Assembly: GCA_963815655.1 (NCBI GenBank)
Contig: CAWFHK010000001.1
Location: 3,930,664 to 3,994,663, forward strand
DNA from: an uncultured Acidobacteriota bacterium
Lineage (GTDB): Bacteria > Acidobacteriota > Thermoanaerobaculia > UBA5066 > Gp7-AA6
Direction of reading: 5' to 3'
DNA length: 64,000 nucleotides
Numbering within the stretch: position 1 is the stretch's first letter; every line of letters begins with the position of its first letter. Position numbers and translations under genes: made by a program. Positions 24,131 to 49,714 of the stretch are shown piece by piece. Under the pieces are notes generated by a model that worked only from the letters and a program-made list of their open reading frames with translations, was not told the origin of the DNA and made no database searches.

Positions 24131-24165
24131 GAAGCCCCGGCGCCGCCGGGGCTTCATTGTTGTTG
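24131..24165. terminator. intrinsic terminator hairpin between convergent genes
   Basis: GC palindrome AGCCCCGGCGCCGCCGGGGCT followed by TCATTGTTGTT. It lies between the stops at 24104 (+) and 24175 (-). Confidence 0.5.
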
Positions 24166-24174
24166 AACCGTCTG

Positions 24175-25518
24175 TCATCGGCCGGACACGACGCTCGCGG
24201 AGGCCGGGCCGGGATTTCCTGCGAGCAGGACCCCGGGGAGATCTCCGCGCAGCTCGAGCAGCCGGGCGCGCGCGGCGACGAGGCCCTGGCTCGCCTGGGA
24301 TTCGTCGTCCGCGGCTCTCGCCGCGGCGATCTCGGCGCGGTCGATGGCGTCGGGCTCGCCGCGGCCTTCGTCGGCAAGCGCCTTCTCGACGGCCAGCGCC
24401 TGCGCCGCGACCGCGAGGGCCCGCGTCGCGAGCTGCCTCTGCAACGCCGCCTTCGCCGCCTCGATCTCGGCGCGCCGCACCGCGAGCTCGACGTCGCGCT
24501 CGCGGGCGCGCCGGTCCGCCCGGATCCTGTCGAGGCGGGCCTGCGCCGCGGCCTGTCCCTGCGCGAGGCGTCCGCCGGTCCAGAGCGGCACGGCGACCGA
24601 GACTCCCACCGCCCAGTCGTTCGCCTTGAACTTGACGAAGTACTGGTCGAAATTGTTGAAATTCGCCAGCCGCATGTACTGCCCCTCCGCCTGGACGACC
24701 GGGAGCCAGGCGCGCCTCTGGAGGAAGGCGGCGCGGTCGAGCGCGGCCTCCTGCCGCGAGAGGGCCGCGAGTGCGGGATCCGCGGCGCGCGCGGCGGCGA
24801 GATGGTTGCCGGGCGCGGGCTCGGGGAGGGCCGCGAGCGGGTCCTCGGCGGCGTCGAGAGCCTCGCCGCGCGGCGCGTCCACGAGCCAGGCGAGCTCCAG
24901 CCGGTCGAGCTCCGCCTCGCCTTGGCGGTCGGCCAGCGCCTGCTTGGCGCGCGCGACGTCGAGGCCCGCCTGCGCAGCGTCGAGGCTCGTCCGCCGCCCT
25001 TCGCGGGCGAGCGCGGTGACGCGGCGCAGCATCGCCTCGCGCGCCTCGAGCTCCCTCCGGGCGTTGCCGATCCTCCGGCGATCCTCCCAGTTGCGCGCAT
25101 AGGAGAGGACGAGAGCGCGCGCCGTCGCGGAGCTCGCGAGGGCGGAGGCCCCGGCCAGGCCTTCCGCGCCGGCCTGCGCTTCGAGGGCCTCGGCGCGGCG
25201 GGCGGGGTCGTAGAGAGTCTGGTGGACCTCGAGGCCGAACACGGCGGGGACCCTCCCCGCGACCGCGACGGGAAGGCCGCTCGAGTATCCGGGAGTCGTG
25301 GTCGCGAAGGCCTGGGGATGGAATCCCGCGGCGGCGGCTCCGGCGCGGCCCGCCGACTCCGCGGCCGCGGCCCGCGCCGACGCGGTCTCCGGCGCGTGGG
25401 CCAGGGCCAGCTCCGCGGCGCGGCGGAGCGTCAACGGTGCGGCCGCCGGCGCCTGGCCGGAAACCGGGAGAGCGGGCAGCGCGGCGGCGAAGAGCAGGGC
25501 GAGTCCCGGTCTATTCAT
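24175..25518 (-). CDS. TolC-family outer-membrane efflux protein
   Basis: Signal peptide. Two-repeat alpha-helical/beta-barrel OMF composition with Ala/Arg-rich coiled-coil heptads. Last gene of an MFP-permease-OMF operon. Confidence 0.75.
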   Translation of the reverse strand: MNRPGLALLFAAALPALPVSGQAPAAAPLTLRRAAELALAHAPETASARAAAAESAGRAGAAAAGFHPQAFATTTPGYSSGLPVAVAGRVPAVFGLEVHQTLYDPARRAEALEAQAGAEGLAGASALASSATARALVLSYARNWEDRRRIGNARRELEAREAMLRRVTALAREGRRTSLDAAQAGLDVARAKQALADRQGEAELDRLELAWLVDAPRGEALDAAEDPLAALPEPAPGNHLAAARAADPALAALSRQEAALDRAAFLQRRAWLPVVQAEGQYMRLANFNNFDQYFVKFKANDWAVGVSVAVPLWTGGRLAQGQAAAQARLDRIRADRRARERDVELAVRRAEIEAAKAALQRQLATRALAVAAQALAVEKALADEGRGEPDAIDRAEIAAARAADDESQASQGLVAARARLLELRGDLPGVLLAGNPGPASASVVSGR

Positions 25519-26716
25519 AGCGGAGAGCCTCCGTCGGGTTGAGATGCGCGGCGCGGTAGGCCGGCACGACGCCGAACACGACCGTGACGCCGCAGGAGAA
25601 GAGGAACGCGAGGAGAGCGGAGAGTCCCGAGACCCGGATCAGGAAGGTCTTGACGAAGGGGCGCAGCAGGAGCGGGAGGCCCATGCCCACGACGACGCCG
25701 ATCAGGGCGCCGATCGCGCCGAGCATCAGGGCCTCGAGCAGGAACTGGCGGAGGATGTCGCGCCGCCGGGCTCCGACCGACATGCGGACGCCGATCTCCC
25801 GGGTGCGCTGCTCGACCGAGGCGAGCAGGATGTTCATGATCCCGACGCCGCCGACGACGACCGAGACGGCCGCCGCGGCGATGAACGCGGCGATCAGGCC
25901 GAAGGAGATCGTGCGGGCGACGCGGATGACTGTCGTCATGGTCTTGACCTTGAAGACCGAGCCCTGGTGGTGGCGCTCCTTCAACAGCTCCTCGACCGCC
26001 GCCGCGGCGTTCGGGATCTCGGAGAACTCCCGCACCTCGGCGAACACCGTGTCCACGCGCCGCGTCGGCGTGAAGAACCAGGCGACGGTGACCGGGATGA
26101 AGATCGAATACGGGGTGACTTCTCCCTGGCCCATTGTGTCCACGGGCTTGTCGAACTCGCCGACGACCTGGAAGGTCATCCCGAGAGTGCGGATCGTCTT
26201 GTCCGGGGAGTCGTCGTTTCCGAAGAGGTCGTGGTAGAGCGGCTGGCTGACGACGCACACCTTCGCGCGCTGGGAGACGTCGTCCTCGTCGAGGAACCGG
26301 CCGCGCAGGATCCGCAGATTCTTCCGGACGGAGGCGTAGTTGGGCGTCGTCCCGAGGACGGCGAGGTCCAGGGCCCGGGAGAGGACGGAGACGGTGCCGT
26401 GGAGCTGGACAAGCGGAGTGACGCCGGAGAAGAGATCGGCGCGCGCCTCGACGGCGCGCACGTCCGCGTCGGTGATCCGGTCCTCCGTCGTGCGCGAAAC
26501 GCCGGCCGTGACCGTTCCCTCGTAGCTCGCCCAGATCAGGTGCGACCCGACCCCTTCGATCTGCGACATGACGAAGGTACGACCGGTCAGTCCCAGCGCG
26601 ACGATGATGATGATCGCGGACGTCCCGACGACGAGCCCCGCCAGCGTCAGCGCGGTCTGGACGGGATGCGTCCGGAACCGGTGCATCGCCGTCTCAAACG
26701 TTTCCCGCGTGAACAT
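25511..26716 (-). CDS. ABC transporter permease, FtsX/MacB-type (no fused ATPase domain)
   Basis: N-terminal TM, a large periplasmic domain, then 3 C-terminal TM helices of the FtsX fold (...GIMNILLASVEQRTREIGVRMSVGA...). Overlaps tolC by 8 bp. Confidence 0.8.
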   Translation of the reverse strand: MFTRETFETAMHRFRTHPVQTALTLAGLVVGTSAIIIIVALGLTGRTFVMSQIEGVGSHLIWASYEGTVTAGVSRTTEDRITDADVRAVEARADLFSGVTPLVQLHGTVSVLSRALDLAVLGTTPNYASVRKNLRILRGRFLDEDDVSQRAKVCVVSQPLYHDLFGNDDSPDKTIRTLGMTFQVVGEFDKPVDTMGQGEVTPYSIFIPVTVAWFFTPTRRVDTVFAEVREFSEIPNAAAAVEELLKERHHQGSVFKVKTMTTVIRVARTISFGLIAAFIAAAAVSVVVGGVGIMNILLASVEQRTREIGVRMSVGARRRDILRQFLLEALMLGAIGALIGVVVGMGLPLLLRPFVKTFLIRVSGLSALLAFLFSCGVTVVFGVVPAYRAAHLNPTEALRYE

Positions 26717-27913
26717 CTACGAACGGCGATCCGGGGACGTTACGCGAAGACCGTCCGACAGCGGAACTGTTCCGGGCAAGATGACAACGTCGTTGTCCCG
26801 CAAGCCGTTCGTGATCTCGACGTCGTTGACGCCGATGAGGCCGATCGTGACGTCGCGCCGGCGCGCGCGGCCGTCCTCGAGCCGATAGACGAAGCGGCGG
26901 TCTCCGTCGCGGAAGAGGGCCGCGCGGGGAACGGCCAGGGCGCCGTGCTTCTCTCCCGTCACGATCTGCACGTTGACGGAGGCGTTGGGGGGAAGGGACA
27001 GGGTCTTGTCGGAGATCTCTCCCAGCACCTCGCCCACCTCGCGGCCGGCGGCTTGCCGGACGCCGGGCGACACGGCGAGGACCTTCCCCTCCCAGCGCCG
27101 GTCGGGCAGGCCGTCGAACAGGACGATGAGCCGCTGGCCCACCGCGACGCGCGGGAGGTCCGGCTGGTCCACGCGCGCCCGCACGCGCAGGTGCTCGGGG
27201 TCGGCCACGCCCGCGACCACCTGCCCGGCCGAAACGGTCTCTCCCGCCTTCCGCGGCAGGCCGTAGACGGTCCCCTCGAACGGGGCGGCGACGGTGAGGG
27301 CGGCCACGCGGCGCTCGAGCTCCCGCGCGGAGGTTTCGGCGAGCTCGAGACGGGACGGACCGGCGCCCGACCCGGCCAGCGATTCGAAGCGAGCCTGCGC
27401 CACGCGGAGGCGCTCGACTCCCTGGCGGTAGGCGAGCTCGTCCGTCTCGTAGGTCGCTCGGGGGATGGCCGACTGGCTCAGGAGCCGGGCGTCCGCCTCG
27501 AAGGTCTCCCTCGCGCGGGCCGTCTCCCGCTTCTGCTGCTCGAGATCTCCCTCCGCGCGGATCCTCTCCTCGGAGAGCTGGGCGGCCGTCGAGCGCGCCT
27601 GCAGAGCGGACTGGGTCAGCTCCGGGCTCTGGAGGACGACGAGCGGCGCCCCCTTCGCGACGCGATCCCCCTCGCGCGCGGGGATGGACGCGACCGTCGC
27701 CGCCTCGGGTGCCCGCAGCTCTCCGCCCGCCGGCGGCTCCAGGCTGCCGTCGGAGAGGATCGGAACGACGAGGTCCCTGCGCGCGACGCGCGCGGTCTGG
27801 ACCGGCACGCCGCTCGGGCCCCGGAAAGCGACGGCCGCGAGGATCACGACGAGCAGGACGGCCATGCCGGCCGCCCAGCGCCAGGGGATCCGGAAGCCGG
27901 GGTCTTCCTTCAA
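26717..27913 (-). CDS. efflux periplasmic adaptor (HlyD/MacA-family membrane fusion protein)
   Basis: N-terminal TM segment, coiled-coil hairpin and beta-barrel/lipoyl-like segments. The start may be TTG at 27913 or the internal ATG at 27865. Confidence 0.75.
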   Translation of the reverse strand: MKEDPGFRIPWRWAAGMAVLLVVILAAVAFRGPSGVPVQTARVARRDLVVPILSDGSLEPPAGGELRAPEAATVASIPAREGDRVAKGAPLVVLQSPELTQSALQARSTAAQLSEERIRAEGDLEQQKRETARARETFEADARLLSQSAIPRATYETDELAYRQGVERLRVAQARFESLAGSGAGPSRLELAETSARELERRVAALTVAAPFEGTVYGLPRKAGETVSAGQVVAGVADPEHLRVRARVDQPDLPRVAVGQRLIVLFDGLPDRRWEGKVLAVSPGVRQAAGREVGEVLGEISDKTLSLPPNASVNVQIVTGEKHGALAVPRAALFRDGDRRFVYRLEDGRARRRDVTIGLIGVNDVEITNGLRDNDVVILPGTVPLSDGLRVTSPDRRS

Positions 27914-27980: not shown

Positions 27981-29372
27981 TCATTCGTTCTCGGAACGCC
28001 GGAGAGGCCGGGTTTCCTCCTCGACGTCGGCGCCGTCTTCGTAGTAGTCGAGCCCGGAGTGATCGAGGACCTCTTCGCCCACGAGAATCCGCAGCGTGTT
28101 GGTCAGCTTCAGGTGCTGGATGAAGAGGTCGTGCTCCGGCTTCAGGTCCGGGCGGGACATGGGCGACTTGAAGTAGAAGGAGAGCCACTCCTGGATGCCG
28201 GAGAGCCCGGCGCGCTGCGCGAGATCGAGGAAGAGGATCAGGTCGAGAACGATCGGCGCGGCCAGGATCGAGTCGCGGCAGAGGAAGTCGATCTTGATCT
28301 GCATCGGCTGCCCCAGCCATCCGAAGATGTCGACGTTGTCCCACCCCTCCTTCGCGTCTCCGCGCGGCGGGTAGTACTCGATGCGGATCTTGTGGAAGTA
28401 GTCGCCGTACAGCTCGGCGTACAGGTCCGGCTGCAGGATGGCGTCGAGGACGGCGACCTTGGACAGCTCCTTGGTCCGGAAGGAGCCGGGGTCGTCCAGC
28501 ACCTCGCCGTCGCGGTTGCCGAGAATGTTGGTGGAGAACCACCCCTTCAGGCCCAGCATCCGCGCCTTCAACCCGGGCGCGAGGATCGTCTTCATGAGCG
28601 TCTGTCCGGTCTTGAAGTCCTTGCCCGCCACCGGGAGGCCCATGGCCTTCGAGAGCTCGACGAGTGCGGGGATGTCCACGGTCAGGTTCGGAGCGCCGTT
28701 GGCGAAGGGGACGCCCGCCTTGAGGGCCGCGTAGGCATAGATCATCGACGGGGAGATGTCGGCGGCGTTGCTCCGCAGACCCTTCTCGAACGCGGCGAGG
28801 GTCTCGTGGGTGGCGCTCGCTTCGAAATACGCCTCGGTCGAGCCGCACCAGACCATGACGGCGCGGTCGACGCCGCGCGTCCTGCGGAAGCTCTCGATGT
28901 CCGCGACGAGCGCTTCGGCGAGCTCCATTCTTGTCGCCGCCTGCTTCGACTGCTTCGCCTCGAGGCGCACGACGTACCGCTGGTCGAAGACGCCGGGCCA
29001 TGGAACGAGGCTCTCCAGCTCCTCGCGCACGGGGGCGAGGGTCGCCGGCGGCAGCACGCCGGCCGCGGCGGCCGCCTGCCAGGCGTTGTCGGGGAAGATG
29101 TCCCAGGCGCCGAAGACGAGGTCCTGGAGCCGCGCGAGCGGGACGAGCTCCTGGATCGGCACGAACCTCGGGTGAGTCCGCTTTCCCAGGCGGAGCTTCT
29201 GCATCTGGGTCAGCGAGCCGATGGGGCGGGCGAGCCCCTTGTTGATCAGGTGGACCCCGGCGACGAGCGTCGTCGAGATCGCTCCGAGGCCCGGCAGGAG
29301 GACGCCGAGCTTCCCGCGGGCGGGCGCGATCTCGCGGGCAAGCTCCGGGTAGAACGAGGTGCGGTCGCTCAC
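27981..29372 (-). CDS. myo-inositol-1-phosphate synthase (MIPS)
   Basis: N-terminal Rossmann NAD motif (LGVLLPGLGAISTTLVAGV). Conserved MIPS blocks (...NGAPNL..., ...LCRDSILAAPIVLDLI..., ...SKVAVLD...). GTG start with GGAG 9 nt upstream, overlapping the upstream stop as GTGA. Confidence 0.8.
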   Translation of the reverse strand: MSDRTSFYPELAREIAPARGKLGVLLPGLGAISTTLVAGVHLINKGLARPIGSLTQMQKLRLGKRTHPRFVPIQELVPLARLQDLVFGAWDIFPDNAWQAAAAAGVLPPATLAPVREELESLVPWPGVFDQRYVVRLEAKQSKQAATRMELAEALVADIESFRRTRGVDRAVMVWCGSTEAYFEASATHETLAAFEKGLRSNAADISPSMIYAYAALKAGVPFANGAPNLTVDIPALVELSKAMGLPVAGKDFKTGQTLMKTILAPGLKARMLGLKGWFSTNILGNRDGEVLDDPGSFRTKELSKVAVLDAILQPDLYAELYGDYFHKIRIEYYPPRGDAKEGWDNVDIFGWLGQPMQIKIDFLCRDSILAAPIVLDLILFLDLAQRAGLSGIQEWLSFYFKSPMSRPDLKPEHDLFIQHLKLTNTLRILVGEEVLDHSGLDYYEDGADVEEETRPLRRSENE

Positions 29373-30496
29373 GCGGGACTCCGAAGGACGTTTCCGCGCC
29401 CCGCGCGCGCCAGCGCCAGGAGCGAAAGGAAGAAGAGAGGAGCCCCGACCGCGGCGAGAATCAGGAACCAGCGGACGAGGCCAAGGGCCGCGAGGATGAC
29501 GACGAGGTAGATGAAGTCCCGGCGCGCGAGGGCGTCGGCCACGCGCGAATAGCGCGACGGCACGCGGGCGACCGAGGTGAAGAGCGGGCCTTCCCGTGTC
29601 CTGGCCGGCGCCATCGTCTGAGAATAGACGAATCCGGCCGAAGCCACGGTCCCCAGGATCGCGCCGGCGCCGAGCGCGAGCGGCCACGCGGAGCCCGAGC
29701 CCCGGCTCCATCCGATGGCGATCGCGCCGAACACGGCGGAATGGACGACGTTATCTCCCCAGAAATCGAGCGTGCCGCCCAGGCGCGATTCCTGGAACTT
29801 CAGGCGCGCCAGCTCGCCGTCGCAGCCGTCGACGATCGAATGCGCGAGGAAGAGGAGCGCGCCCGCGACATCGAGCGCCGGACGGGCCGGGAGGAAGAGA
29901 ACAGCTCCCACGAGGCCCAGGCCCACGCTCGCGAGCGTCATCGCGTTGGGAGTGACCCGCGTCGAGGCGAGGCGGCGGGAGATGGCGAGCGAGATCTTCC
30001 GGTCCACGTGGCGCGCCATGAAGCCGTCTTGCTGCTTGACGAGAGTCGCGAGCAGCCACATCTGCGCCTTCGGGAGGTCGGCCGGGCTCGAGACGGCGAA
30101 GCGCGATCCTTCCCCGGGAGGCTCCGGGAAGGGCGCGAAGGGGCGCGAGCGCAGGACCCCGGCGAGATGGTCCGACGGGCCGAGGTCTCCGAGGACGGCG
30201 TCCGGGTCCGCGGTCTCGAGCGCGGCCGCGCACACCCCGTCGGAATAGAGCCGCCCGGGTTCGAGCGGCATCTCTCGAAGCGAGCGCAGCCAGGGCACGG
30301 TCGGGATGACGGACCCCGGGAGCAGGACGACCCGCCCGGGGGAGAGCGAACCGGGCGCCCGCGCCTCGGCCGCGGGAAGAATCCGGCCGAAGCCGGCGCG
30401 CTCGGCGGCCTTCACGATTCTCGTCGTCAACGGCAGGCCCAGGACGATGGTCTCGCGCGGGACCGGCCCGGCCAGGATCACGAGGGTCGCGCTCAC
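29369..30496 (-). CDS. CDP-alcohol phosphatidyltransferase with ~150-aa N-terminal cytoplasmic extension
   Basis: CDP-OH-PT signature D-G-x2-A-R-x8-G-x3-D-x3-D (DGCDGELARLKFQESRLGGTLDFWGDNVVH). 5-6 TM helices. The N-terminal domain has a weak nucleotidyltransferase-like Gly-rich start (LVILAGPVP). Confidence 0.7.
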   Translation of the reverse strand: MSATLVILAGPVPRETIVLGLPLTTRIVKAAERAGFGRILPAAEARAPGSLSPGRVVLLPGSVIPTVPWLRSLREMPLEPGRLYSDGVCAAALETADPDAVLGDLGPSDHLAGVLRSRPFAPFPEPPGEGSRFAVSSPADLPKAQMWLLATLVKQQDGFMARHVDRKISLAISRRLASTRVTPNAMTLASVGLGLVGAVLFLPARPALDVAGALLFLAHSIVDGCDGELARLKFQESRLGGTLDFWGDNVVHSAVFGAIAIGWSRGSGSAWPLALGAGAILGTVASAGFVYSQTMAPARTREGPLFTSVARVPSRYSRVADALARRDFIYLVVILAALGLVRWFLILAAVGAPLFFLSLLALARAGRGNVLRSPA

Positions 30497-30500
30497 ATTG

Positions 30501-31541
30501 TCACCCGGACGTCATCTTAACGGGGGACCTGGCCGGAAGCGGGACGGGCTCGCCGCCGCGCCGGCTCGATTCGTAGGCGGCGGCCACCAGGCCCGCGCAC
30601 AGGCCCGCCACGGCGAGGTTCCCGCCGCGGGACGCGCGGTCGGTAATCGCCTCGGCGAACTCGGCGGCGACCCCGGCGAACCAGTCCGGGTGTTGCGAAC
30701 CGTGCGAAAGCGGCTCGGGGAACCCCCATTGCGCCGTCCCGGGTCCGCCGCCGGATCCGGTCAACTCGAGGAGCCTCCCGTCCAGGGAGAGCGCGCCCCG
30801 GCTCCCTTCGATCCAGGCCCGGTTCGTCCGCTCCGCGCCGGCCCACGTCAGGAAGACCTCCGCTTTCGCGCCGTCGTAGTCGAGGAAGACCCGGGCCGTG
30901 TCTTCGAACCCGCCGCCTCGTCTGTCCTCCAGATGCGCGGCGACATGGCGGGGAGGCTGCGGGAGCCAGTCGGCGAGAACGGAAAGCGCGTGCCAGCCGT
31001 GGTCCACGAGGATCCCTCCGCCCGAGACGGCGGGGTCCACGCGCCAGTTGCTCGCCATGCTTGACGCCGCGGGCTCGCGCCGCACGGTCTCCCAGAGAAA
31101 CCGGCGGACCTCCCCGATGGCTCCCTCCGCGGCGAGCTCGCGGGCCTTCGCGAAGATCGGCGCGTGCCGCCAGTTGAGGACCGTGAAGAGGACCCGGTCG
31201 GCACGCCCGGAGGCCTCGACGAGGGGCGGCAGCTCCTCCGGCCGGATGACGAGCGGCTTCTCGCACAGGACGTGCCGCCCGGAGAGGAGCGCCCGCCTCG
31301 CCAGGTCCGCGTGCGCGGCCGGCGGAGCGCAGATGTCCACGAAGTCGAGCTCCTCGCGAGCGAGCAGCTCTTCCGCGGAAGCGTGCCACCGGATTCCCGC
31401 CGCGCGGGACTCGAGCTCCCGCCGGCCGGTCTCGCTCGGATCGCTGGCGGCGACGAGGGAAACGTCTTCGCGCTCCAGCCACGCCGGCAGGTGGCCGCGC
31501 AGGGCCACGTTGCCGACTCCGATGATCGCCCCTCGAAGCAT
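30501..31541 (-). CDS. Gfo/Idh/MocA-family NAD(P)-dependent oxidoreductase (inositol/sugar dehydrogenase-like)
   Basis: N-terminal Rossmann motif IIGVGNVA...H and the EKP catalytic motif (VLCEKPL). Confidence 0.8.
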   Translation of the reverse strand: MLRGAIIGVGNVALRGHLPAWLEREDVSLVAASDPSETGRRELESRAAGIRWHASAEELLAREELDFVDICAPPAAHADLARRALLSGRHVLCEKPLVIRPEELPPLVEASGRADRVLFTVLNWRHAPIFAKARELAAEGAIGEVRRFLWETVRREPAASSMASNWRVDPAVSGGGILVDHGWHALSVLADWLPQPPRHVAAHLEDRRGGGFEDTARVFLDYDGAKAEVFLTWAGAERTNRAWIEGSRGALSLDGRLLELTGSGGGPGTAQWGFPEPLSHGSQHPDWFAGVAAEFAEAITDRASRGGNLAVAGLCAGLVAAAYESSRRGGEPVPLPARSPVKMTSG

Positions 31542-31555
31542 CGTCCTCCGGGCGG

Positions 31556-32821
31556 CTAGCCGGGTCTCTGTTCACGGAAGACGACACCCATGGCTTCGTC
31601 AAGGATGCCGAGGCCTTCGAGCGCCGTGTCCTCGTCGATCGTCAGCGGGGGGTTGATCCGGATGTTGTGCGAATAGCACATGGAGAGGAGTCCCCGGCGG
31701 ACGCATTCCTGAAACAAGGCCCGCGTCGTCTCCTTCTCGAGCGGCTCCTTCGTCGCGCGGTCCCTGACCAGCTCGACGCCGAGGAGCAGGCCCTTGCCCC
31801 GGACATCCCCGATGAAGGGGTGCTTCTCCTTCATCGCGAGGAGCCGGGCGAGCATCGCGCCCCCGACCCGCTCGGAATTCTCGACGAGGTTCTCGCGCGT
31901 GATGATCTCCAGCGCGGCGAGCCCGGCGGCCGCGGCGAGCGGGTTGCCGCCGTACGAGGAGGAGCTGCCGCTCGGTTTCGAGAACGGGGGGTGCGCGGTG
32001 AGCGCTTCGGTCGAGACGACGCCGGAGAGCGGGAACCCGCCGCCGACGCCCTTGCCGACCGTCATGACGTCGGGCACCACGCCGTCGTGGTCCACGCCCC
32101 ACATCTTTCCCGTCCGCCCGAAGCCCGTGATCATCTCGTCGGCGATGAAGAGGGCGCCGTGCTCGCGGGCGATGGACTGGATGGCGGGGAGAAAGCCCGG
32201 AGGCGGAATGACGTTGCCGGCGGTGCCCTGCATCGGCTCGACGATCACAGCCGCGACCGCGCCTCCCGTCTGGTTTCGGATCACCTCGCGCGTCTTCTCG
32301 GCGCAGGCGATGCCGCAGGCGGGATAGGTCAGGGAGAGCGGGCAGCGATAGCAGTAGGCGTAGGGCGCCGAGTAGCAGCCCGGGGCGAAGGGCCCGAGGC
32401 CTTCCTTGAAGCCGCCCCAGAGGAGCGGCAGAACGCCCCCCGTCTTGCCGTGGAAGGCGCCCGTGTAGCCGACGAACTCGTGTTTCTTCGTCGCGGACTT
32501 GGCCAGCCGGAACGCCGCCTCGACCGCCTCGGCGCCGCCGGAGAAGAGCTGGATGCGCGTCAGGCCCGGCGGCGCCACGCTCGCGAGGAGCTCCAGGAAC
32601 TTCGCCCGGACCTCCGTCGTGAAGCTTCCGAAGGTCACGCGTTCGAGCTGCTCCTTCAGGCGGGCGACGTAGTGCGGGTGGCAGTGCCCCACGCTCCCCA
32701 CCGCGACGCCGGCGATGAAGTCGATGTAGGCCCTGCCGTCTTCGTCGTAGAGACGGCTGCCGCTTCCGCGGGCGATGGCGAGTCCCGAAGAGAGCGCGAA
32801 GGATTGGAGTCCCGGCGCCAT
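31556..32821 (-). CDS. class-III (AT-III) PLP aminotransferase, HpnO/ornithine-GABA aminotransferase-like
   Basis: Class III aminotransferase blocks (DGRAYIDFIAG..., ...LFIADEMITGFGRTGKMWG..., ...TVGKGVGGGFP...). ATG at 32821. Confidence 0.8.
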   Translation of the reverse strand: MAPGLQSFALSSGLAIARGSGSRLYDEDGRAYIDFIAGVAVGSVGHCHPHYVARLKEQLERVTFGSFTTEVRAKFLELLASVAPPGLTRIQLFSGGAEAVEAAFRLAKSATKKHEFVGYTGAFHGKTGGVLPLLWGGFKEGLGPFAPGCYSAPYAYCYRCPLSLTYPACGIACAEKTREVIRNQTGGAVAAVIVEPMQGTAGNVIPPPGFLPAIQSIAREHGALFIADEMITGFGRTGKMWGVDHDGVVPDVMTVGKGVGGGFPLSGVVSTEALTAHPPFSKPSGSSSSYGGNPLAAAAGLAALEIITRENLVENSERVGGAMLARLLAMKEKHPFIGDVRGKGLLLGVELVRDRATKEPLEKETTRALFQECVRRGLLSMCYSHNIRINPPLTIDEDTALEGLGILDEAMGVVFREQRPG

Positions 32822-32886
32822 GTGACGCTGCTCGTCGGCGAAGACTCTCCGGGAGCGCGGGCCGGGGCCTCCCTCCCGATGTTTGC

Positions 32887-33759
32887 TCAGGGTCGGGCCT
32901 CGACCGGACCGGCCTCCCTCTGCAGGCAGGCCGCGAGGCGCACGGCGATGCGCTCGGACGCGATCCGGCGGTAGAGGGCGAAGCTCGGCCAGGCGTTGAT
33001 GTCGATGACCACGAGGCGGCCGTCGGCGGCCGCGATGGCGTCTCCGCCGTAGACCTCGAGGCCGAGCGAGCCGGCGGCGCGGGCGGCGGTCGCCGCGAGA
33101 GCGTCCGTGTCGAAGGGATGCCGCGACAGTTCCTGGTCCCGATGGTAGAACCACTGGAACCAGGCCTCGCCCTCCGGCTCCGGGGGCGCGACGCCGTAGA
33201 ACTTGATCAGGTCTCCGGGCACGTGCTCCTGGATGACCGCCGTCTCGATGCCGCGCTCCGCCATTCGCGCGAGCACGGCGGCCGCCGGCTCCGAGCCCGC
33301 GGCGAACGACACGTCGTCCTCCCGCGTCCTGTGATGGTCGCCGCGCTTGACCCAGACCGGCGCCGCGCGCGAAGGGAGCGCGTCCGCCGGCAGGGGCTCG
33401 CCCGTCGCCACGAGGACGCTGCGGGGGAACGGGATTCCGTCTCTCGCGAGGAGCGCGATCATCCGGTGGCGGCGGGTGTTGAGGATCGCCGACACGCGGT
33501 TGACGATGCGCGCGCCGTTCTGCTCCCACCGCCCGAGCAACTCGAGGATCGGGGGAAGCTCGCACATGACGAAGGCCAGGGAAGGCGCCTGCGCCGACGC
33601 GGCCGCCTCGTCCGGCGTCAGGAGGGTCACGGGCTGTCCCAGCGATTCCAGGCGCCGGGCCGTCGCGCGGAGGATCTCGGCGTCGTCCACCTCCCGGCCG
33701 GGGGAATGCATGAGCTCGCGGTAGATCCCCCAGCAGGACCGCCCCGCCGGCGCGTTCAT
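32887..33759 (-). CDS. ATP-grasp family ligase
   Basis: ATP-grasp C-terminal motifs (...VIQEHVPGDLIKFYGV..., ...VVIDINAWPSF...). The ATG overlaps the upstream stop (ATGA). Confidence 0.6.
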   Translation of the reverse strand: MNAPAGRSCWGIYRELMHSPGREVDDAEILRATARRLESLGQPVTLLTPDEAAASAQAPSLAFVMCELPPILELLGRWEQNGARIVNRVSAILNTRRHRMIALLARDGIPFPRSVLVATGEPLPADALPSRAAPVWVKRGDHHRTREDDVSFAAGSEPAAAVLARMAERGIETAVIQEHVPGDLIKFYGVAPPEPEGEAWFQWFYHRDQELSRHPFDTDALAATAARAAGSLGLEVYGGDAIAAADGRLVVIDINAWPSFALYRRIASERIAVRLAACLQREAGPVEARP

Positions 33760-34484
33760 GGTTTCCCTGCCGTCACGGGCGCGCCGGGCTCGCGGGCCGC
33801 GAGCTCCTCGGCGAGGGCCAGGTCCTCGGGGCGGTCCACGTCCACGACGGCGGGGATGGAGAAGGCGAGGAGGGTCTCTCCGCTCCGCGCGAGCCAGGAG
33901 AGGAACTCCCGCAGCCGTCCGATGTTCTCGGGAGGGCGGAGCTTCCGGACCCGCTCGGGGAAGGCGTACATTCCTGCCGTCACGACGTCTCCTTTCTCTC
34001 CTCCAAGAGCCGTGATCCGCCCCGCCGGGTCGACGGACGCGCGCAGCGGCTTTTCGTCCGCGACGAACGGAGTCACCGCGAGCATCGCCGCCTCCGGCGC
34101 CTCCGCGGCCGCTCGCGCGAAGCGCAGGAAGTCTTCCCGCGGGCACCAGGCGTCCACCGTCGAGAAGAGCGCCGGACCCGGCGGCAGGCGCGCCGCGACC
34201 CGCCGGAAGCTCTCGTAGGAGGAGGCCGTCGTCTTCAGGATGACCTCCGTCTCGAGGGAAGGGAACCGGCCGCGGATCCAGTCGGCGCAGTCCTGCTCGC
34301 TCTCGTTGAAGATGACCGTGACGCGGTCGACGCCGGCCGCCGCGAAGTTGGCGAGGACGTGCGCGACGAGCGGGACGCCGGCGACCCGCACGAGGGGCTT
34401 GGCGGCCCCCCCTCCTCCCGCGCGCAGCCGGCTGCCCTCGCCGGCCGCGAGGAGGCCGCCGACGCGGATCGGCCCGGGCGTCAC
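33756..34484 (-). CDS. nucleotidyltransferase (NTP_transferase fold; sugar/alcohol-phosphate cytidylyl- or guanylyl-transferase-like)
   Basis: N-terminal GGLLAAGEGSRL...KPL signature. GTG start overlapping the upstream stop (GTGA). Confidence 0.65.
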   Translation of the reverse strand: MTPGPIRVGGLLAAGEGSRLRAGGGGAAKPLVRVAGVPLVAHVLANFAAAGVDRVTVIFNESEQDCADWIRGRFPSLETEVILKTTASSYESFRRVAARLPPGPALFSTVDAWCPREDFLRFARAAAEAPEAAMLAVTPFVADEKPLRASVDPAGRITALGGEKGDVVTAGMYAFPERVRKLRPPENIGRLREFLSWLARSGETLLAFSIPAVVDVDRPEDLALAEELAAREPGAPVTAGKP

Positions 34485-35218
34485 GGCAGGATCTCCTCGA
34501 TCTCCGCGAGCCGCCGGATCATCGGATCGCCCGGACAGCACGGCCGGGCGCCTCCGTCGGCCTCGCGGGCGGCGAGCCAGACATGCCGCATGCCGGCCTC
34601 GCGGGCGCCCGCCATATCGCGCGGGGCGGAGTCGCCCACGAAGACCGTCTCGCCGGCATGCGCTCGAAGCGGCGTCAGGGCGGCCTCGAAGATGCGGCGG
34701 TCGGGCTTCGTGTATCCGACCACGGCCGAATCGACGGCGACGGAGAGCGACGGCGCGAGACCGGTCTCGGCGCAGACCGCGGCGAGATTTCCGTAGAAGT
34801 TGGAGACGATCCCGATGCGGTACCGGCGGGCGAGCCGCTCGAGCAGCCGCGCGCTTTCGGCGAGCCGCTCGCTCGCCTGCGCGTGGAACCGCGCCGCCAG
34901 CCTCGCTGCGACGGATTCGTCCGCGAGGCCGAGCGTTCCGGCGAGCCCGGCGGCCAGCCTCTCGACGGTCTCGCGCAGCCCGAGCGTCGCGGGAAGCCTC
35001 CCGACGAGCGCGTCGTTGGCGGTGTAGAAGGCCGGGTCGAATCTCTCCCGCGGGACCTCGATCCCTTCCTCCCGGCAGTGGCGGAAGAAACGCTCCTTCC
35101 AGGGGATGCCCTCGGCGTCGAGCGTGCCCCCGAAGTCGAAGAGGAGGAAGAGGACCGGATCGTTGCGGACCGGGTCCGGCGCCGAGTGCCGGGGGCCGGG
35201 AGGCGCAAGCGGATTCAT
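34481..35218 (-). CDS. HAD-superfamily hydrolase (phosphatase)
   Basis: Motif I DFGGTLD (DxD), motif II SN, and the motif III/IV K...GD (TVFVGDSAPRD). Confidence 0.7.
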   Translation of the reverse strand: MNPLAPPGPRHSAPDPVRNDPVLFLLFDFGGTLDAEGIPWKERFFRHCREEGIEVPRERFDPAFYTANDALVGRLPATLGLRETVERLAAGLAGTLGLADESVAARLAARFHAQASERLAESARLLERLARRYRIGIVSNFYGNLAAVCAETGLAPSLSVAVDSAVVGYTKPDRRIFEAALTPLRAHAGETVFVGDSAPRDMAGAREAGMRHVWLAAREADGGARPCCPGDPMIRRLAEIEEILP

Positions 35219-36228
35219 CGCAGCTCCTCGGCCCCGGTCGGCAGCTCGACGGCCGACGCCCGCTTCCCGCGGGCCGGGCGCGCGATCAGGTAGAGAGCCC
35301 CGGGCACGAGCCAGACGAACTCCCGGGCGCGCCGCGCGAGCGCGTACGCCGCGCCCTGCGCCGCCGCGAGCCCGAGCAGGACGAAGATCCCGACCCGGAC
35401 CCCTTCGGCGCTGCCGGCCCTCGCCGGGACCCAGAGGAACATGTTGTTGAGCGCCATGGCCATCGCTTCGACGGCGAACGCGGTCGGCCACCCGGCGCCG
35501 GGCGCCACGAGGCGCAGGATGAGATACGTCTCGACCAGTCCCCCGCACCAGCCGAGAAAGCTCAGGCCGACGGCCGCCCCGAACCGTCCGCGCCGCCTCG
35601 CGTAGAAGCCGCGGATGTCGGCATCCACGCGCTGAGCGGCTTCCTGGTACCGGCCGACCCGCGCGGCGAGGAACCTCCAGCGCGCGAGCCACCGCAGGAT
35701 CGGGGCGTAGGTCCCCCGGAAGAGCGACCACGTCAGCAGGACAAAGAGCGCGCCCAGCACGGCGACCCCGCCGAGGGCCCCCCAGCGCGCCCCCGCGGGC
35801 AGAGGAAAGCGGACCAGGCAGACCGTCACTCCGCCGACGATGAAGACCCACTGGGCCAGCATGTCGGCGTGCTTGTGGATCGTGAGCGAGGCGAGCGCGC
35901 GGCCCGGCGGCAGCGTCCCGGTGAGCAGCCGGGCCTTGAGCGGCTCGCCCGCGACGCCTCCGGGCGCGACGTAGTTGACCGTGTACCCCGCGAGGTAGAC
36001 GCCCATCAGGCGCGGCAGCGCGGAGAGAGGCAGGAGCGGATCGATCACGAGCCACCAGCCGAGCAGGAACGCGGCCTCCGCGAAGAAGTAGATCGCGACG
36101 AGCAGGACGAACCAGGCGCCGATCGCCTCCAGGTTCGAGGCGATCGCGGGCCAGCCGACCCGCCAGAAGAGCCAGGCGACGAGCGCCAGGCCCGCCAGCA
36201 GGAGCGCGCCCCGCGTGCTCCGGTTCAT
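35215..36228 (-). CDS. UPF0104 / lysyl-phosphatidylglycerol-synthase-TM-like 'flippase-like' membrane protein (HpnL-like)
   Basis: About 8 TM helices, all hydrophobic, and an Arg/Lys-rich N-terminus. This family is known as a hopanoid-cluster-associated membrane protein. Overlaps the HAD gene (ATGA). Confidence 0.6.
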   Translation of the reverse strand: MNRSTRGALLLAGLALVAWLFWRVGWPAIASNLEAIGAWFVLLVAIYFFAEAAFLLGWWLVIDPLLPLSALPRLMGVYLAGYTVNYVAPGGVAGEPLKARLLTGTLPPGRALASLTIHKHADMLAQWVFIVGGVTVCLVRFPLPAGARWGALGGVAVLGALFVLLTWSLFRGTYAPILRWLARWRFLAARVGRYQEAAQRVDADIRGFYARRRGRFGAAVGLSFLGWCGGLVETYLILRLVAPGAGWPTAFAVEAMAMALNNMFLWVPARAGSAEGVRVGIFVLLGLAAAQGAAYALARRAREFVWLVPGALYLIARPARGKRASAVELPTGAEELR

Positions 36229-36247
36229 GGAAGGGGCTCCGCGCGCC

Positions 36248-37225
36248 TCACGCCGTCGGGAGAAGCGCCTTCAGTTCGACCGGGAGGGGAAAGTTCACGT
36301 CCTCCTGCACCGTTTCGAACTCCTCGACGGACTCGACGCCCAGACTTTCGCGCGCGTAGTCCACGACTTCGCGCACGAGGATCTCCGGCGCGGACGCGCT
36401 CGCGGTCAGGCCGAGGACCCGGACGCCCGAGAGCCATTCCGGCCGGATGTCCATCGCCCGCTCGATCAGGTACGACGGGACGTTGTGCGCGCGGCCGACC
36501 TCGCAGAGGCGAAGGGAGTTGGAGCTGTTGGGCGCGCCGAGCACCAGGAGGGCGTCCACGTGCGGCGCCATCGCGCGCACCGCGTCCTGCCGGTTCTGGG
36601 TGGCGTAGCAGATGTCCCCCTTGGGCGGGCTGACCATGTCGGGGAAGCGGCGCTTCAGGACCTCGACGATCTCGCGCGTGTCGTCGAGCGAGAGTGTCGT
36701 CTGGGTCAGGTACGCCACCCTGCCGGGATCGGGGACCTCCACCGTCTCGGCCTCTTCCCGGTTCCCGACCAGGCGGATCGCCCCGGGCGCCTCTCCGAGC
36801 GTGCCGATCGTCTCGTCGTGGTCGTGATGCCCGATCAGGAGAATCGTGTAGTTCTTCTTCGCGTAGTGGATCGCCTCGAGGTGGACCTTCGTGACGAGCG
36901 GGCAGGTCGCGTCAATTGTCTTCAGCTGCTTGCGGCGGGCGTCGGCCCGCACCGTCGGCGAGATGCCGTGGGCCGAATAGATGAGCCACGACCCGTCGGG
37001 GACCTCGTTGACCTCCTCGACGAAGACAGCCCCCTTCTCCCGCAGCTCGTCCACGACGTAGCGGTTGTGGATGATCTCCTTTCGCACGTAGACCGGGCCG
37101 TCGCAGACCTGCAGCGCCCGGTCCACGACGTCGATCGCGCGCACGACGCCGGCGCAGAAGCCGCGCAGCCCCGCCACGAGGAGCTTCTCGACGCGCGCCG
37201 CGCCGGGATCCGTCGCTACGACCAT
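36248..37225 (-). CDS. ispH: 4-hydroxy-3-methylbut-2-enyl diphosphate reductase
   Basis: Conserved IspH/LytB blocks (GFCAGV, ...ATCPLVTKVH..., ...HNVPSYLIE...). Confidence 0.9.
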   Translation of the reverse strand: MVVATDPGAARVEKLLVAGLRGFCAGVVRAIDVVDRALQVCDGPVYVRKEIIHNRYVVDELREKGAVFVEEVNEVPDGSWLIYSAHGISPTVRADARRKQLKTIDATCPLVTKVHLEAIHYAKKNYTILLIGHHDHDETIGTLGEAPGAIRLVGNREEAETVEVPDPGRVAYLTQTTLSLDDTREIVEVLKRRFPDMVSPPKGDICYATQNRQDAVRAMAPHVDALLVLGAPNSSNSLRLCEVGRAHNVPSYLIERAMDIRPEWLSGVRVLGLTASASAPEILVREVVDYARESLGVESVEEFETVQEDVNFPLPVELKALLPTA

Positions 37226-39165: not shown

Positions 39166-39383
39166 GGATCTCCTTGCCGTTGCCCGTCCTGGCGCGGGGC
39201 GCGTTCGACGTCCGTACCGTGTCCCGCTCTCGAGCCGATGTGCCTCAAGTTATCGCGCTCCCCTGAATATACCAGCTTGATAGCATTCGGGTTTCAGCCC
39301 GCGAGGAGTCTTGCAATTCCATGGCCGGAGAGGCGATAGTCCCCGGCGCGGGGGAATCGGCGGAGAGGAGGTCCCACAGGGAC

Positions 39384-40295: not shown

Positions 40296-40365
40296 TGGTC
40301 CTTCGCTCCAAGAACCCAACCAGGTTTCCCCCTCCGAACCCCGAGTCCCGAGTCCCGAGTCCCGA
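40250..40365. repeat. inverted GGGACTCG / CGAGTCCC octamer arrays spanning the ferritin-like stop and abutting the next start codon
   Basis: CGGGACGCGGGACTCGGGACGCGAGACTCG (40250-40280) and CCGAGTCCCGAGTCCCGAGTCCCGAC (40340-40365) are reverse complements of each other. The second ends 3 nt before the ATG at 40369. Confidence 0.75.
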
Positions 40366-40368
40366 CTG

Positions 40369-41541: not shown

Positions 41542-41648
41542 GACGTGAGACGTAAGAACGTGAGGCGTGGCGCGGGAAGGGCATTTGGAGCTTCGTTTTG
41601 CGTTTCACGCTTAACGTCTTACGGCTCTGGTGTTAACTTGGTCCAAAG

Positions 41649-47546: not shown

Positions 47547-49548
47547 CGGCTCGATTCTCCTTCGCTCGTCCTCGTGTCGGCCGTGGCTTCCAGGGCCTTC
47601 CGATCGGCGGCCTCGAGTCCGGGGCCGGAAGACCCGGCCTCCCGTCCATAGACCGCGAGGGCCCAGAGCGGGAAGTACGTCGCGTAGAGATGGTAGCGCA
47701 GGTAGAAGACCCGCGGGAACCCCGTCCCGGTCCAGTATTCGTCCTTCCAGGAGCCGTCGTACTGCTGGTTTCCCAGCAGGTAGTCGAGGCCGCGGCGAAC
47801 GCTGTTGGAAGTCCAGTCGCCCAACGCGAAGAGTCCAAGCAACGCCCATGCCGTCTGGGAGGGGGTGCTCGGCCCGGTGCCTTTGCGCCCCGGCTCGTCG
47901 TAGGAGCGCGGGAGCTCTCCCCATCCGCCGTCCTCGTTCTGGTGGCGGCGCAGCCAGCTCCCCCCCGCTGATACCGTTCCTGGGAGAGGTCCTCGCCGGC
48001 GCTCGCGAGTCCCCTCAGGGCGAGCCACGTCCCGTAGATGAAGTTGCACCCCCACCGCCCATACCAGGTTCCTTCGGTGTCCTGCCTGCGGTTCAGATAC
48101 GCGACGGCGCGCCGGACCGCCTTGACGCCGCGCCCGACGCCGATCCGGTCGAGCGCCTCGAGCGTGCGCCCGGTGATGTCCTCGCAGCTCGGGTCGATCA
48201 TGGCGTTGTGGTCCGCGAACGGGATGAACGTCAGCACCTCGTTGTCGCAGTCGCGGTCGAAGGCGGGCCAGCCGCCGTCGCCGTTCTGCATCGCGAGCTG
48301 CCAGGTCACGCCGCGCTCGATCGCCCCCTGCCGGCGCCGCTCGTCGCGCTCGTCGGGAAAACGCACGGCGGCCAGAGACGTCAGCACTTCCGCCGTGTCG
48401 TCGGTATCGGGATAGAACTCGTTCTCGTACTCGAAGTACCAGCCGCCGGGGGGCGTCTTCGGGATCCGCCGCTGCCAGTCCCCGGGCACGCGGACTTCGC
48501 GGTCGAGCAGCCAGCCCGCCGCGCGCAGCAGGCACGGATCGTCTTCCGGGACGCCCGCCTCCCGCAGCGCGACCACCGCGAGCGCCGTGTCCCAGACCGG
48601 GGGGAAGCAGGGCTGCAGGCGAATCGTCTCTTCCTCCTCGATCTCCAGCTTCTGCAGCTCTTCGACCTGGCTCTTCACCGTCGGGTGATCGGCCGCGTAG
48701 CCGCGGCAGCGCAGCGCGAGGATCGTGTTGACGATCGGAGGGAAGATCGCTCCGAGCCCGTCGCTCCTCTCGAGACGCTCGAGGACCCACGCCTCGGCCC
48801 GTGCCAGCGCCCGCCTGCGCAGGGGAGTCCAGCGCCGGGACTCCAGCTCGTGGAGGAACCGGTCCACCCCGCCGAAGAAGGCTCCCCAGAACCGCGCGCG
48901 CAGGCTCCGCGCCCGCCGCTTCGGCTGCGCCGCGCCCTCCGGCGTCCGGAGCTCGGTGAGAGACGCGCTCTCCGGGACGGGACAGCTCGGGCGATATGCC
49001 GAGATGATCGAGAGGGGCACCACGATCGCGCGGGACCAGGAGGACATCCGATAGATCGAGAACGGCATCCAGTCCGGCAGCAGGACGAGCTCCGCCGGGA
49101 CGGTCGGGCATCTCTCCCAATCGTATTGTCCGAAGATCGAGAGATAAATCTTCGTGAAGGAGTTGCACGCGTCCAGCCCGCCATGCTCGCGGATGACGCG
49201 CCGCGCCTTCGCCATGTGCGGGGCTTCGGGGTCGTCGCCGACGAGCTTCAAGGCGAAGTAGGCCTTCGTCGAGGCGCTCACCTCCGCCGGGCCTCCCGGG
49301 TAGACCGCCCAGCCCCCCGACGGGAGCTGCTGGCGCCGCAGGTACTCGGCCGCCTTCCGGATCCGGTCCTCCCCGGTGCGCCCGAGGAAATGCATCGTCA
49401 GCATGTACTCGGACTCGAGGATCGTGTCCCCCTCGAGCTCGCCGCACCAGTGGCCGTCCTCGCGCTGGATGGAGAGGAGGTACCGGCGGGCCGCCGCCGC
49501 GGCGTCGTCCACCCCGAGTGCGGGTTCCACGTCTTTCTCGACCGACAT
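47543..49548 (-). CDS. shc: squalene-hopene cyclase, reading frame interrupted at a G7/C7 homopolymer (47960-47966)
   Basis: The N-terminal ~530 aa (frame A) carry the QW motifs and DxDDTA (DTDDTAEV). The C-terminal ~140 aa (GGWGE...TGTGFPRVFYLRYHLY...) lie in a second frame. One extra G in the run would restore ...SQERYQRGGSWLRRHQNEDGGWGE.... Confidence 0.8.
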
Positions 49549-49714
49549 GATTCGCTTGCCGGGGCCGTTGCCTGTCACCGACGGCCCCACTGCTTCCCTC
49601 CGTTTTGCCGGGAGTGTAATCCCTCCGACCCGGACACCCGCAAACCGATTTCGGGAGTATACGGTCCCGGACCGGGAGGCGATTCAAGGAGAGCCGATCG
49701 CGGATAATGCCGTC

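Follow-up and report, generated by a model that had tools for sequence, protein, structure and literature searches.

We analysed a 64,000-nucleotide stretch of genomic DNA from an uncultured Acidobacteriota bacterium (hereafter the window), in which three consecutive genes encode a Gfo/Idh/MocA-type oxidoreductase (Gfo), a class-III pyridoxal phosphate (PLP) aminotransferase and an ATP-grasp enzyme. This triplet occupies the centre of one eight-gene operon, and the operon belongs to a cassette that is conserved from soil Acidobacteria to gut Bacteroidales as an inositol-phosphate head-group core. Within it, the ATP-grasp protein is a core, amine-independent pathway enzyme coupled to an NTP-transferase and a CDP-alcohol phosphotransferase (CDP-OH-PT), while Gfo and the aminotransferase make up a two-enzyme module that some cassettes lack. 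We give about even chances to the overall proposal that the operon turns glucose-6-phosphate into a CDP-activated cyclitol-phosphate head group, attaches it to a membrane lipid and flips it outward.

An eight-gene operon conserved across phyla

The window is about 70% G+C, so reading frames were picked by third-codon-position GC. This bore out the positions that an earlier, sequence-only reading had given for the three genes, and all real genes within 27981-39165 lie on the minus strand. The enzyme classes named in that reading were correct, class III included (PF00202, 1e-97), and so was the link it drew to CDP-OH-PT and myo-inositol-1-phosphate synthase (MIPS), which are directly adjacent (29369-30496 and 27981-29372). 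Its placement of the triplet downstream of both holds in plus-strand coordinates only; with every cassette gene on the minus strand, transcription reaches the triplet first and CDP-OH-PT and MIPS after it. The genes, in order of transcription, are:

35215..36228, minus strand: gene 1, HpnL-like, MprF-flippase-type membrane protein (337 aa; PF03706 LPG_synthase_TM, 2.8e-30)
34481..35218, minus strand: gene 2, HAD-IA small-molecule phosphatase (HAD; 245 aa; PF00702, 1.4e-16; PF13419, 6.4e-12)
33756..34484, minus strand: gene 3, MobA-like NTP-transferase, predicted cytidylyltransferase (PF12804, 8.1e-13; PF00483, 9.3e-06)
32887..33759, minus strand: gene 4, ATP-grasp-fold enzyme (290 aa; unannotated family)
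31556..32821, probably to 32890, minus strand: gene 5, class-III (fold-type I) PLP aminotransferase (PF00202, 1e-97)
30501..31541, minus strand: gene 6, Gfo/Idh/MocA NAD(P)-dependent oxidoreductase (346 aa; PF01408, 1.5e-18; PF22725, 3.5e-22; PF02894, 1.4e-12)
29369..30496, minus strand: gene 7, AF2299/DIPPS-like CDP-OH-PT (375 aa; PF01066, 1.3e-09)
27981..29372, minus strand: gene 8, MIPS (PF07994, 4.1e-94; PF01658, 4.7e-30)

A 4-nt overlap of stop and start codons joins the genes at the HpnL/HAD (ATGA), HAD/NTP-transferase (GTGA), NTP-transferase/ATP-grasp (ATGA) and CDP-OH-PT/MIPS (GTGA) junctions. MIPS starts with a GTG that overlaps the CDP-OH-PT stop, and the NTP-transferase, with its first in-frame start at 34541, probably starts with the GTG at 34484 that overlaps the HAD stop. 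The aminotransferase has 421 aa when read from the ATG at 32821, and probably starts with a CTG at 32890 overlapping the ATP-grasp stop (CTGA), giving 444 aa. Its orthologues have 440-446 aa and an N-terminal peptide GPRSRxIFxxExRH; the window has codons for it, in frame, 5' of the ATG. There the conserved peptide GPRSRRVFADEQRH precedes the first ATG, and no ATG, GTG or TTG is on offer. Close orthologues have been cut to 416-421 aa by gene callers. Directly upstream of the cassette, on the same strand, lie dxs and ispH, and directly downstream of MIPS, again on the same strand, genes for MacA-, MacB- and TolC-like proteins. A terminator scan of the minus strand of the operon gave only weak internal sites, none convincing, with the sole strong hairpin at 24131-24155, past the TolC-like gene, and a promoter scan found nothing.

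A profile of the ATP-grasp family retrieved relatives in 353 species genomes, and the best 80 loci were analysed. They belong to Thermoanaerobaculia and further Acidobacteriota, to Methylomirabilota/Rokubacteria, to Nitrospirota and, in one case, to Elusimicrobia; the best-matching ones suggest that the window derives from an Acidobacteriota relative of Thermoanaerobaculia. Genes were counted by tblastn with the window proteins, many loci ending at contig edges: ATP-grasp was detected in 80, the NTP-transferase in 76, HAD and the aminotransferase in 69 each, Gfo and the HpnL-like protein in 67 each, CDP-OH-PT in 66 and MIPS in 60. The same colinear cassette is found in most of these loci, in Acidobacteriota, Methylomirabilota, Nitrospirota and Elusimicrobia, and the cassette also occurs in Ignavibacteria. 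The arrangement is far beyond chance, with one gene order shared by most of the 80 loci across several phyla. MIPS is 73-84% identical in related loci; dxs and ispH adjoin the cassette in Acidobacteriota loci only (56 of the 80), and efflux genes are kept 3' of MIPS in 11-13. A search of the published literature returned no account of this cassette, nor of any inositol-hopanoid link.

Some loci show particularities of their own. The cassette of one Acidobacteriota locus (L016, 12200-20834) ends after the aminotransferase, and Gfo, CDP-OH-PT and MIPS were not detected in the next 8.6 kb, which are free of N runs; a rearrangement or insertion is possible. When the window is compared with L009, L012 and L024, identity is 79-94% for Dxs, IspH, the aminotransferase and MIPS and only 47-60% for ATP-grasp, Gfo, CDP-OH-PT, the NTP-transferase and HAD; the evolutionary rates of cassette proteins are very different between close relatives. 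Downstream of the cassette of a Methylomirabilales locus (L041, 16574-18067) lies an extra 497-aa fusion of NTP_transf_3 and CDP-OH_P_transf domains, an IPCT/DIPPS-like architecture, followed by a weak HpnL-like match.

Predicted inositol-lipid core genes and the ATP-grasp family

Five of the eight cassette genes, which are contiguous, match the definition of the putative alternative inositol-lipid cluster of Bacteroidetes, in which MIPS is grouped with genes for an NTP transferase, a CDP-alcohol phosphatidyltransferase and a HAD hydrolase and a homologue of lysyl-phosphatidylglycerol synthase is close by (Heaver 2022, PMC9246714). The likeness extends beyond these core genes, since the Bacteroidales clusters that we fetched also carry an ATP-grasp homologue; unlike our cassette, the alternative cluster lacks Gfo and the aminotransferase and has no hopanoid neighbourhood, and its publication mentions no ATP-grasp enzyme. 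B. vulgatus and P. veroralis, which have the alternative cluster, make unmodified phosphatidylinositol (PI)-dihydroceramide (PMC9246714), which would argue against an ATP-grasp enzyme that acylates the head group.

The catalytic motif of CDP-OH-PT (DGCDGELAR...GGTLDFWGD) is intact. Its closest solved relatives are AF2299 (PDB 4o6m, of the same two-domain size; E 1.1e-22) and IPCT/DIPPS (4mnd; 1.3e-13), with which it shares an N-terminal cytosolic domain, the signature D(x)2DG(x)2AR...G(x)3D(x)3D and a cytidylyltransferase partner, as well as a substrate supplied by MIPS and a phosphatase expected after transfer. It differs from IPCT/DIPPS in a score of 88.7 bits, over the transferase half only, against the cut-off of 580 of model NF041135, and the cassette differs in its mesophile hosts, its flippase-type protein, its ATP-grasp enzyme and its amination pair. 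The cytosolic N-terminal domain has about 150 aa, and no NTP-transferase model matched the N-terminal 135 residues in a Pfam scan; the domain appears to resemble a degenerate nucleotidyltransferase. HAD has weak matches to REG-2-like and YjjG-like families. The 337-aa HpnL-like protein scores 108.5 bits with the HpnL model TIGR03476, under its cut-off of 195.65, and has PF03706 as its sole Pfam match, the C-terminal synthase domain of MprF not being found. MprF has the same flippase-type domain, and the predicted amine would, as in MprF systems, lower the negative surface charge of an anionic head group; the cassette differs from MprF in having no aminoacyl-tRNA-dependent synthase domain and in an amine that would come from ring transamination, not from an esterified amino acid.

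Genes of lipid transport accompany the cassette. The Ignavibacteria locus L086 (4773-15101) has the full gene set with MlaE, MlaF and MlaD embedded between the NTP-transferase and ATP-grasp, which ties the cassette product to the Mla phospholipid-transport system; this cassette is preceded by a MarR-type regulator. Elsewhere MlaC and MMPL genes, or MacAB-TolC, adjoin the cassette. Together with the flippase-type protein, these neighbours suggest a membrane-lipid product.

The ATP-grasp protein of the window had no match at E <= 0.01 in a Pfam scan, and an exact search for it returned no recorded gene; its three-domain fold assigns it to the ATP-grasp superfamily. Of its ATP-binding lysines, K138 never varies and K186 rarely does (>=90% in one family alignment), the Mg2+-binding triad D240, D253 and N255 is invariant across 80-143 family members, and all five residues align with the RimK motif. 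Searching 1.84 billion representatives gave 1285 family representatives at 50% identity, and a separate search gave thousands of relatives in Bacteroidales. The family is repeatedly fused to other cassette members: NTP-transferase-ATP-grasp fusions form at least 7 clusters at 50% identity, a HAD-NTP-transferase-ATP-grasp fusion occurs once (P0271), and so does an ATP-grasp-CDP-OH-PT fusion (700 aa, in L082), whereas no fusion to the aminotransferase or Gfo was present among the proteins sampled. Such partners place the enzyme with CDP activation and transfer, and not with a last N-acylation step.

The distribution of the family leads to the same position. Homologues that are 30-36% identical stand in Bacteroidales/Bacteroidaceae clusters of the order NTP-transferase-ATP-grasp-CDP-OH-PT-(LPG_synthase_TM)-HAD-MIPS, which carry neither aminotransferase nor Gfo, and a nested clade of five of the 80 loci has lost both genes and kept ATP-grasp with every invariant residue. 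The family-wide invariants are identical with or without the pair. It is on these grounds, the fusions, the Bacteroidales clusters, the retention without aminotransferase and Gfo and the unchanged invariants, that we regard ATP-grasp as core and amine-independent. A co-variation of R139 and D141 with the pair was considered and rejected, both residues being present also in aminotransferase-less Bacteroidales members.

Eleven of the 80 loci hold a second, paralogous four-gene cassette of HpnL-like protein, HAD, ATP-grasp and CDP-OH-PT, whose ATP-grasp paralogue keeps most invariants and differs consistently at R139Q, D141T, H206P, Q209K/H/R and L46Y. This cassette, present in many Acidobacteriota, is divergently oriented (L013, L023, L027, L037, L038, L042, L048, L056, L058, L060 and L073; also L082), and in genomes that have it the main cassette is without a HAD of its own.

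What reaction the enzyme catalyses is less clear from its relatives. The family profile matched PsnB (9e-8), a RimK-type protein (9e-7), ITPK4 (2e-5) and ITPK1 (5e-4) in the PDB, and Pfam votes over the 80 members were split among RimK (18), ATPgrasp_ST (17) and Ins134_P3_kin (15), the last being the best, weak, match of the window protein. With the RimK model TIGR00768 that protein reached 25.3 bits against a cut-off of 143.4 (PF08443, E 0.22); the 'N..RGG' signature of RimK/LysX and the Gly-rich loop were not seen in the family alignment, where 'FRSNLHRGG' of RimK is aligned to 'FQWFYHRDQ'. Judging from such scores, homology does not separate kinase from ligase chemistry. We tentatively favour, at a little under even chances, a phosphotransferase making the species that gets cytidylylated, a choice that follows from the NTP-transferase fusion, the amine independence, the plain PI of Bacteroidetes and the HAD phosphatase in the unit; a carboxylate ligase is the weaker candidate but keeps a fair chance.

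The predicted amination pair and competing pathways

All three Gfo/Idh/MocA domains (PF01408, PF22725 and PF02894) scored above gathering thresholds, corresponding to a Rossmann and a C-terminal alpha/beta domain, and the translation contains 'VLCEKPL' and 'VDHGWH', which we take to be the catalytic EKP lysine motif and the Asp-x3-His pair. The inositol dehydrogenase model IolG (TIGR04380) gave 68 bits against a cut-off of 355, and models of levoglucosan, xylose and UDP-GlcNAc dehydrogenases were equally weak; the best-matching models are those of dehydrogenases for ring sugars and cyclitols, and every one scores far under cut-off. PF00202 covers residues 14-410 of the aminotransferase with 327.9 bits, and its translation has 'DEMITGFGRTG' and, with the Schiff-base lysine, 'TVGKGVGGG'. 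It missed every NCBIfam cut-off: GabT TIGR00700 (292.4 of 506.65), argD TIGR00707 (261.9 of 410.05) and PRK08117 (335.7 of 574). GabT/dialkylglycine-decarboxylase (DGD) types scored higher (249 bits) than ArgD/OAT types (172-190 bits). The sequence-only reading had likened the enzyme to HpnO of aminobacteriohopanetriol synthesis, which stands at the level of the class and no further. Identities of 70-87% within the 80 loci, and of 58% and 53% in two distant clusters, point to a cassette-specific clade of its own.

In the 80 loci Gfo is always accompanied by the aminotransferase, and the pair is kept or lost together. Two long-read metagenome-assembled genomes (MAGs) seemed to have Gfo alone; the aminotransferase is present there and frameshifted, so this state was ruled out. 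The pair stands within the inositol cassette even in loci without hopanoid genes inside 8-10 kb. We think it probable, if by no means certain, that the two enzymes aminate the cyclitol ring, oxidation and transamination of one hydroxyl giving an inosamine head group; this is the simplest reading. Aminoglycoside and rhizopine aminocyclitol routes likewise combine a Gfo/Idh/MocA-type oxidation of a ring hydroxyl with PLP transamination, and streptomycin biosynthesis uses an inositol dehydrogenase and an inosose aminotransferase, followed by a scyllo-inosamine kinase. This ATP-dependent phosphorylation of an aminocyclitol may serve as a precedent for a kinase role of ATP-grasp. These routes differ from the cassette in their aminotransferases, which are of DegT/StsC type, in kinases that are not ATP-grasp enzymes, and in products, which are antibiotics or opines for secretion instead of lipid head groups activated with CDP.

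In the pathway that we propose, homology and synteny give MIPS the conversion of glucose-6-phosphate into inositol-3-phosphate (Ins3P), and ATP-grasp would act beside the NTP-transferase on a cyclitol or cyclitol phosphate, for example from Ins3P to Ins(1,3)P2 or from inositol or inosamine to its phosphate. Homology and synteny likewise place CDP-alcohol chemistry with the MobA-like NTP-transferase and the AF2299/DIPPS-like CDP-OH-PT, and the removal of a phosphate with the HAD-IA phosphatase, and the HpnL/MprF-type membrane protein is the candidate flippase. Gfo would oxidise a ring hydroxyl to the ketone and the aminotransferase would transaminate it, turning an anionic phospho-inositol into a zwitterionic phospho-inosamine head group; the substrate of this amination could be free inositol, an intermediate that is phosphorylated or CDP-activated, or the completed lipid. 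The candidate lipid acceptors are diacylglycerol, a ceramide-like lipid or, in this organism, a hopanoid polyol.

Several points weigh against this pathway. The functions of the cassette genes are read from homology and synteny and should be taken as predictions. DIPPS-type enzymes are membrane proteins with soluble products, so CDP-OH-PT alone is no proof of a lipid product, and a kinase seems redundant if the NTP-transferase takes Ins3P directly, as IPCT does. A class-III aminotransferase acting on an inosose would be unusual, the known inosose aminotransferases being, to our knowledge, of DegT type and not of class III. In B. vulgatus (Phocaeicola vulgatus), ATP-grasp is presumed, from the gene order in other Bacteroidales, to be encoded by the unnamed gene that separates those of the NTP-transferase and the phosphatidyltransferase and lies between BVU_RS13095 and BVU_RS13105. 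The function of the alternative cluster, proposed to work via CDP-inositol, is itself putative (PMC9246714).

The sequence-only reading had placed the three enzymes in series, from inositol to inosose to inosamine and on to an N-acyl or aminoacyl product made last by ATP-grasp, in effect a tRNA-independent analogue of MprF. Its first part is plausible, with the Gfo/aminotransferase unit lying in an inositol cassette, and its terminal acylation is not supported. An MprF-type flippase protein in the operon and the translational coupling of the ATP-grasp and aminotransferase genes in the window would suit acylation as the last step, yet the enzyme is fully conserved without aminotransferase and Gfo in the five-locus clade and the Bacteroidales clusters, and persists with most invariants in the 11-locus paralogous cassette. 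Moreover, its fusion partners are NTP-transferase, HAD and CDP-OH-PT, it has no 'N..RGG' signature or Gly-rich loop, and Bacteroidetes whose cluster has no aminotransferase or Gfo make plain PI-dihydroceramide (PMC9246714), so that we consider this ending unlikely. It is less likely still that the pair modifies a hopanoid side chain, an HpnO-like aminotransferase and Gfo converting ribosylhopane or bacteriohopanetetrol into an amino-bacteriohopanepolyol to which phospho-inositol is then added. The cassette does abut hopanoid genes in three phyla and HpnO is likewise a class-III aminotransferase, but the pair remains in the inositol cassette where no hopanoid gene lies within 8-10 kb (L086 and L083). 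The aminotransferase is nearer to GabT/DGD than to ArgD/OAT types, HpnO being described as ArgD-like, and the top matches of Gfo are ring-sugar and cyclitol dehydrogenases. HpnO requires no dehydrogenase partner, since ribosylhopane supplies the aldehyde.

Comparably improbable is a soluble solute of the di-myo-inositol-phosphate type, possibly aminated, with the NTP-transferase as IPCT, CDP-OH-PT as DIPP synthase and HAD as DIPP phosphatase. AF2299 and IPCT/DIPPS are indeed the closest characterised relatives of CDP-OH-PT and HAD is of a small-molecule type; enzymes of the DIPPS, AIPS and PIPS families, moreover, transfer onto an inositol phosphate and then require a phosphatase, which would fit. 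A soluble product is hard to reconcile with a flippase-type membrane protein conserved in the operon, with MlaEFD, MlaC/MMPL and MacAB-TolC genes embedded or adjoining, with hosts that are mesophilic soil, groundwater and gut bacteria and not hyperthermophiles, with NCBIfam DIPPS scores all far under cut-off, and with the inositol lipids made by Bacteroidetes that have the core cluster (PMC9246714). A chance adjacency of a housekeeping GABA or ornithine aminotransferase, a sugar dehydrogenase and a RimK/glutathione-synthetase ligase is barely credible. Automatic names such as '4-aminobutyrate aminotransferase-like' and 'glutathione synthase/RimK-type ligase-like' would suggest it, but the genes are colinear across at least 5 phyla, their start and stop codons overlap, cassette members are fused, and curated primary-metabolism cut-offs are all missed widely. 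By their scores, neither the aminotransferase went with GabT, ArgD or ornithine types (335.7 against 574 at best, in a clade of its own 53-87% identical across phyla) nor ATP-grasp with RimK/GshB housekeeping clades (25 bits against 143), the two outcomes that the sequence-only reading had named as fatal to it. The primary-metabolism reading was thus rejected on NCBIfam cut-offs and synteny, and is effectively refuted by synteny and fusions.

Hopanoid neighbourhood and significance

Hopanoid genes abut the cassette in three phyla, not everywhere. The window itself has shc, hpnH, hpnA, an hpnG-like and a squalene-synthase-like gene, plus dxs and ispH, and some 14 kb separate the aminotransferase gene from hpnH and shc. 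The genes around the cassette are:

24175..27913, minus strand: MacA-like, MacB/FtsX-like and TolC-like efflux genes (classes from translations alone)
36248-37225, minus strand: ispH (NF002190, PRK01045.1-4, 407.7 bits, cut-off 389; TIGR00216, 311.6, cut-off 187.85)
37216-39165, minus strand: dxs (TIGR00204, 710 bits, above cut-off)
43705-44610, minus strand: squalene-synthase-like gene
44607-45374, minus strand: HpnG-like gene (HpnG model, 108.7 bits, below cut-off)
45337-46323, minus strand: HpnA (478.7 bits, above cut-off)
46545-47924, minus strand: HpnH (351.9 bits, above cut-off)
about 47543-49560, minus strand: squalene-hopene cyclase (SHC), split over two frames (48% and 61% identical to the L041 cyclase in tblastn)

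Directly upstream of the Methylomirabilota cassette are genes for two MlaC proteins, with an HpnN-like MMPL protein between them, then for a PagL-like protein and SHC. The neighbours of the cassette in a Nitrospirota MAG are genes for MlaC, IspG and an HpnH-like radical SAM protein. Other loci are without hopanoid genes nearby, among them L086 and L083 of Ignavibacteria, where none occurs within 8-10 kb. Such linkage is thus frequent and not universal, which makes a hopanoid acceptor possible but not the default. That a hopanoid polyol is the acceptor in Acidobacteriota, Methylomirabilota and Nitrospirota, with a phospho-inosamine or phospho-inositol bacteriohopanepolyol as product, we regard as improbable. 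The cassette resembles HpnO/HpnL systems in combining a class-III aminotransferase and an HpnL-like protein near shc, hpnH, hpnA and an hpnG-like gene; it differs in that the aminotransferase travels with the inositol cassette and not with hopanoid genes, and in an HpnL score under cut-off. A 2025 preprint on hopanoid-associated genes leaves HpnL without a characterised function, for which a role in head-group modification has been speculated, and notes that IPR005814 is not specific for HpnO (PMC12324291).

Several further features of the window were noted. A Methylomirabilota SHC matches 49482..47965 with its residues 27-528 and, in a different frame, 47956..47618 with residues 532-643. The change of frame looks like a 1-nt frameshift near 47957-47965, which could be an assembly error or mark a pseudogene; the former is possible because related long-read MAGs show similar frameshifts. 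The open reading frame (ORF) called hpnH (46545-47924) therefore has a spurious N-terminal 126 aa. Three plus-strand genes (39321-43250) diverge from dxs. The first encodes 324 aa with diiron-like EEGRH...EEARH motifs, without Pfam or PDB match, and is kept beside dxs in 50 of the 80 loci; the second encodes a putative outer-membrane barrel of 390 aa without Pfam match, and the third a B12-binding radical SAM protein with DUF4070, far under the HpnJ, HpnR and PhpK cut-offs. A 674-aa secreted-looking protein (22080-24104, plus strand) ends in two dockerin-like 'DANGDGNVNGLDIVYLINYIFAGGPAP' repeats, and the minus-strand ORF 21268-21981, with a low-complexity GV-rich translation, is probably no gene.

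Inositol lipids count as rare in bacteria, and the alternative route to them in gut Bacteroidales is unsolved. If our proposal is true, the unannotated ATP-grasp family, for which Pfam has no model, would be a missing core enzyme of that pathway, and Gfo and the aminotransferase would predict an undescribed lipid class, phospho-inosamine lipids as a zwitterionic counterpart of phosphatidylinositol, for which lipidomics would have a target mass 0.984 Da below that of the inositol analogue. The 353 species genomes with the ATP-grasp marker are from phyla that abound in soil and groundwater, and the full cassette is present in most of the 80 loci; the repeated placement by shc, hpnH and hpnN/hpnM-like genes would be a lead on HpnL-type proteins and would bear on the unexplained nitrogen-containing hopanoids used as environmental biomarkers. 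A hopanoid polyol acceptor, which would need a new ATP-grasp family of inositol(-phosphate) kinases and HpnL-type proteins as the flippase, would give the first phosphodiester-linked, CDP-dependent hopanoid head group.

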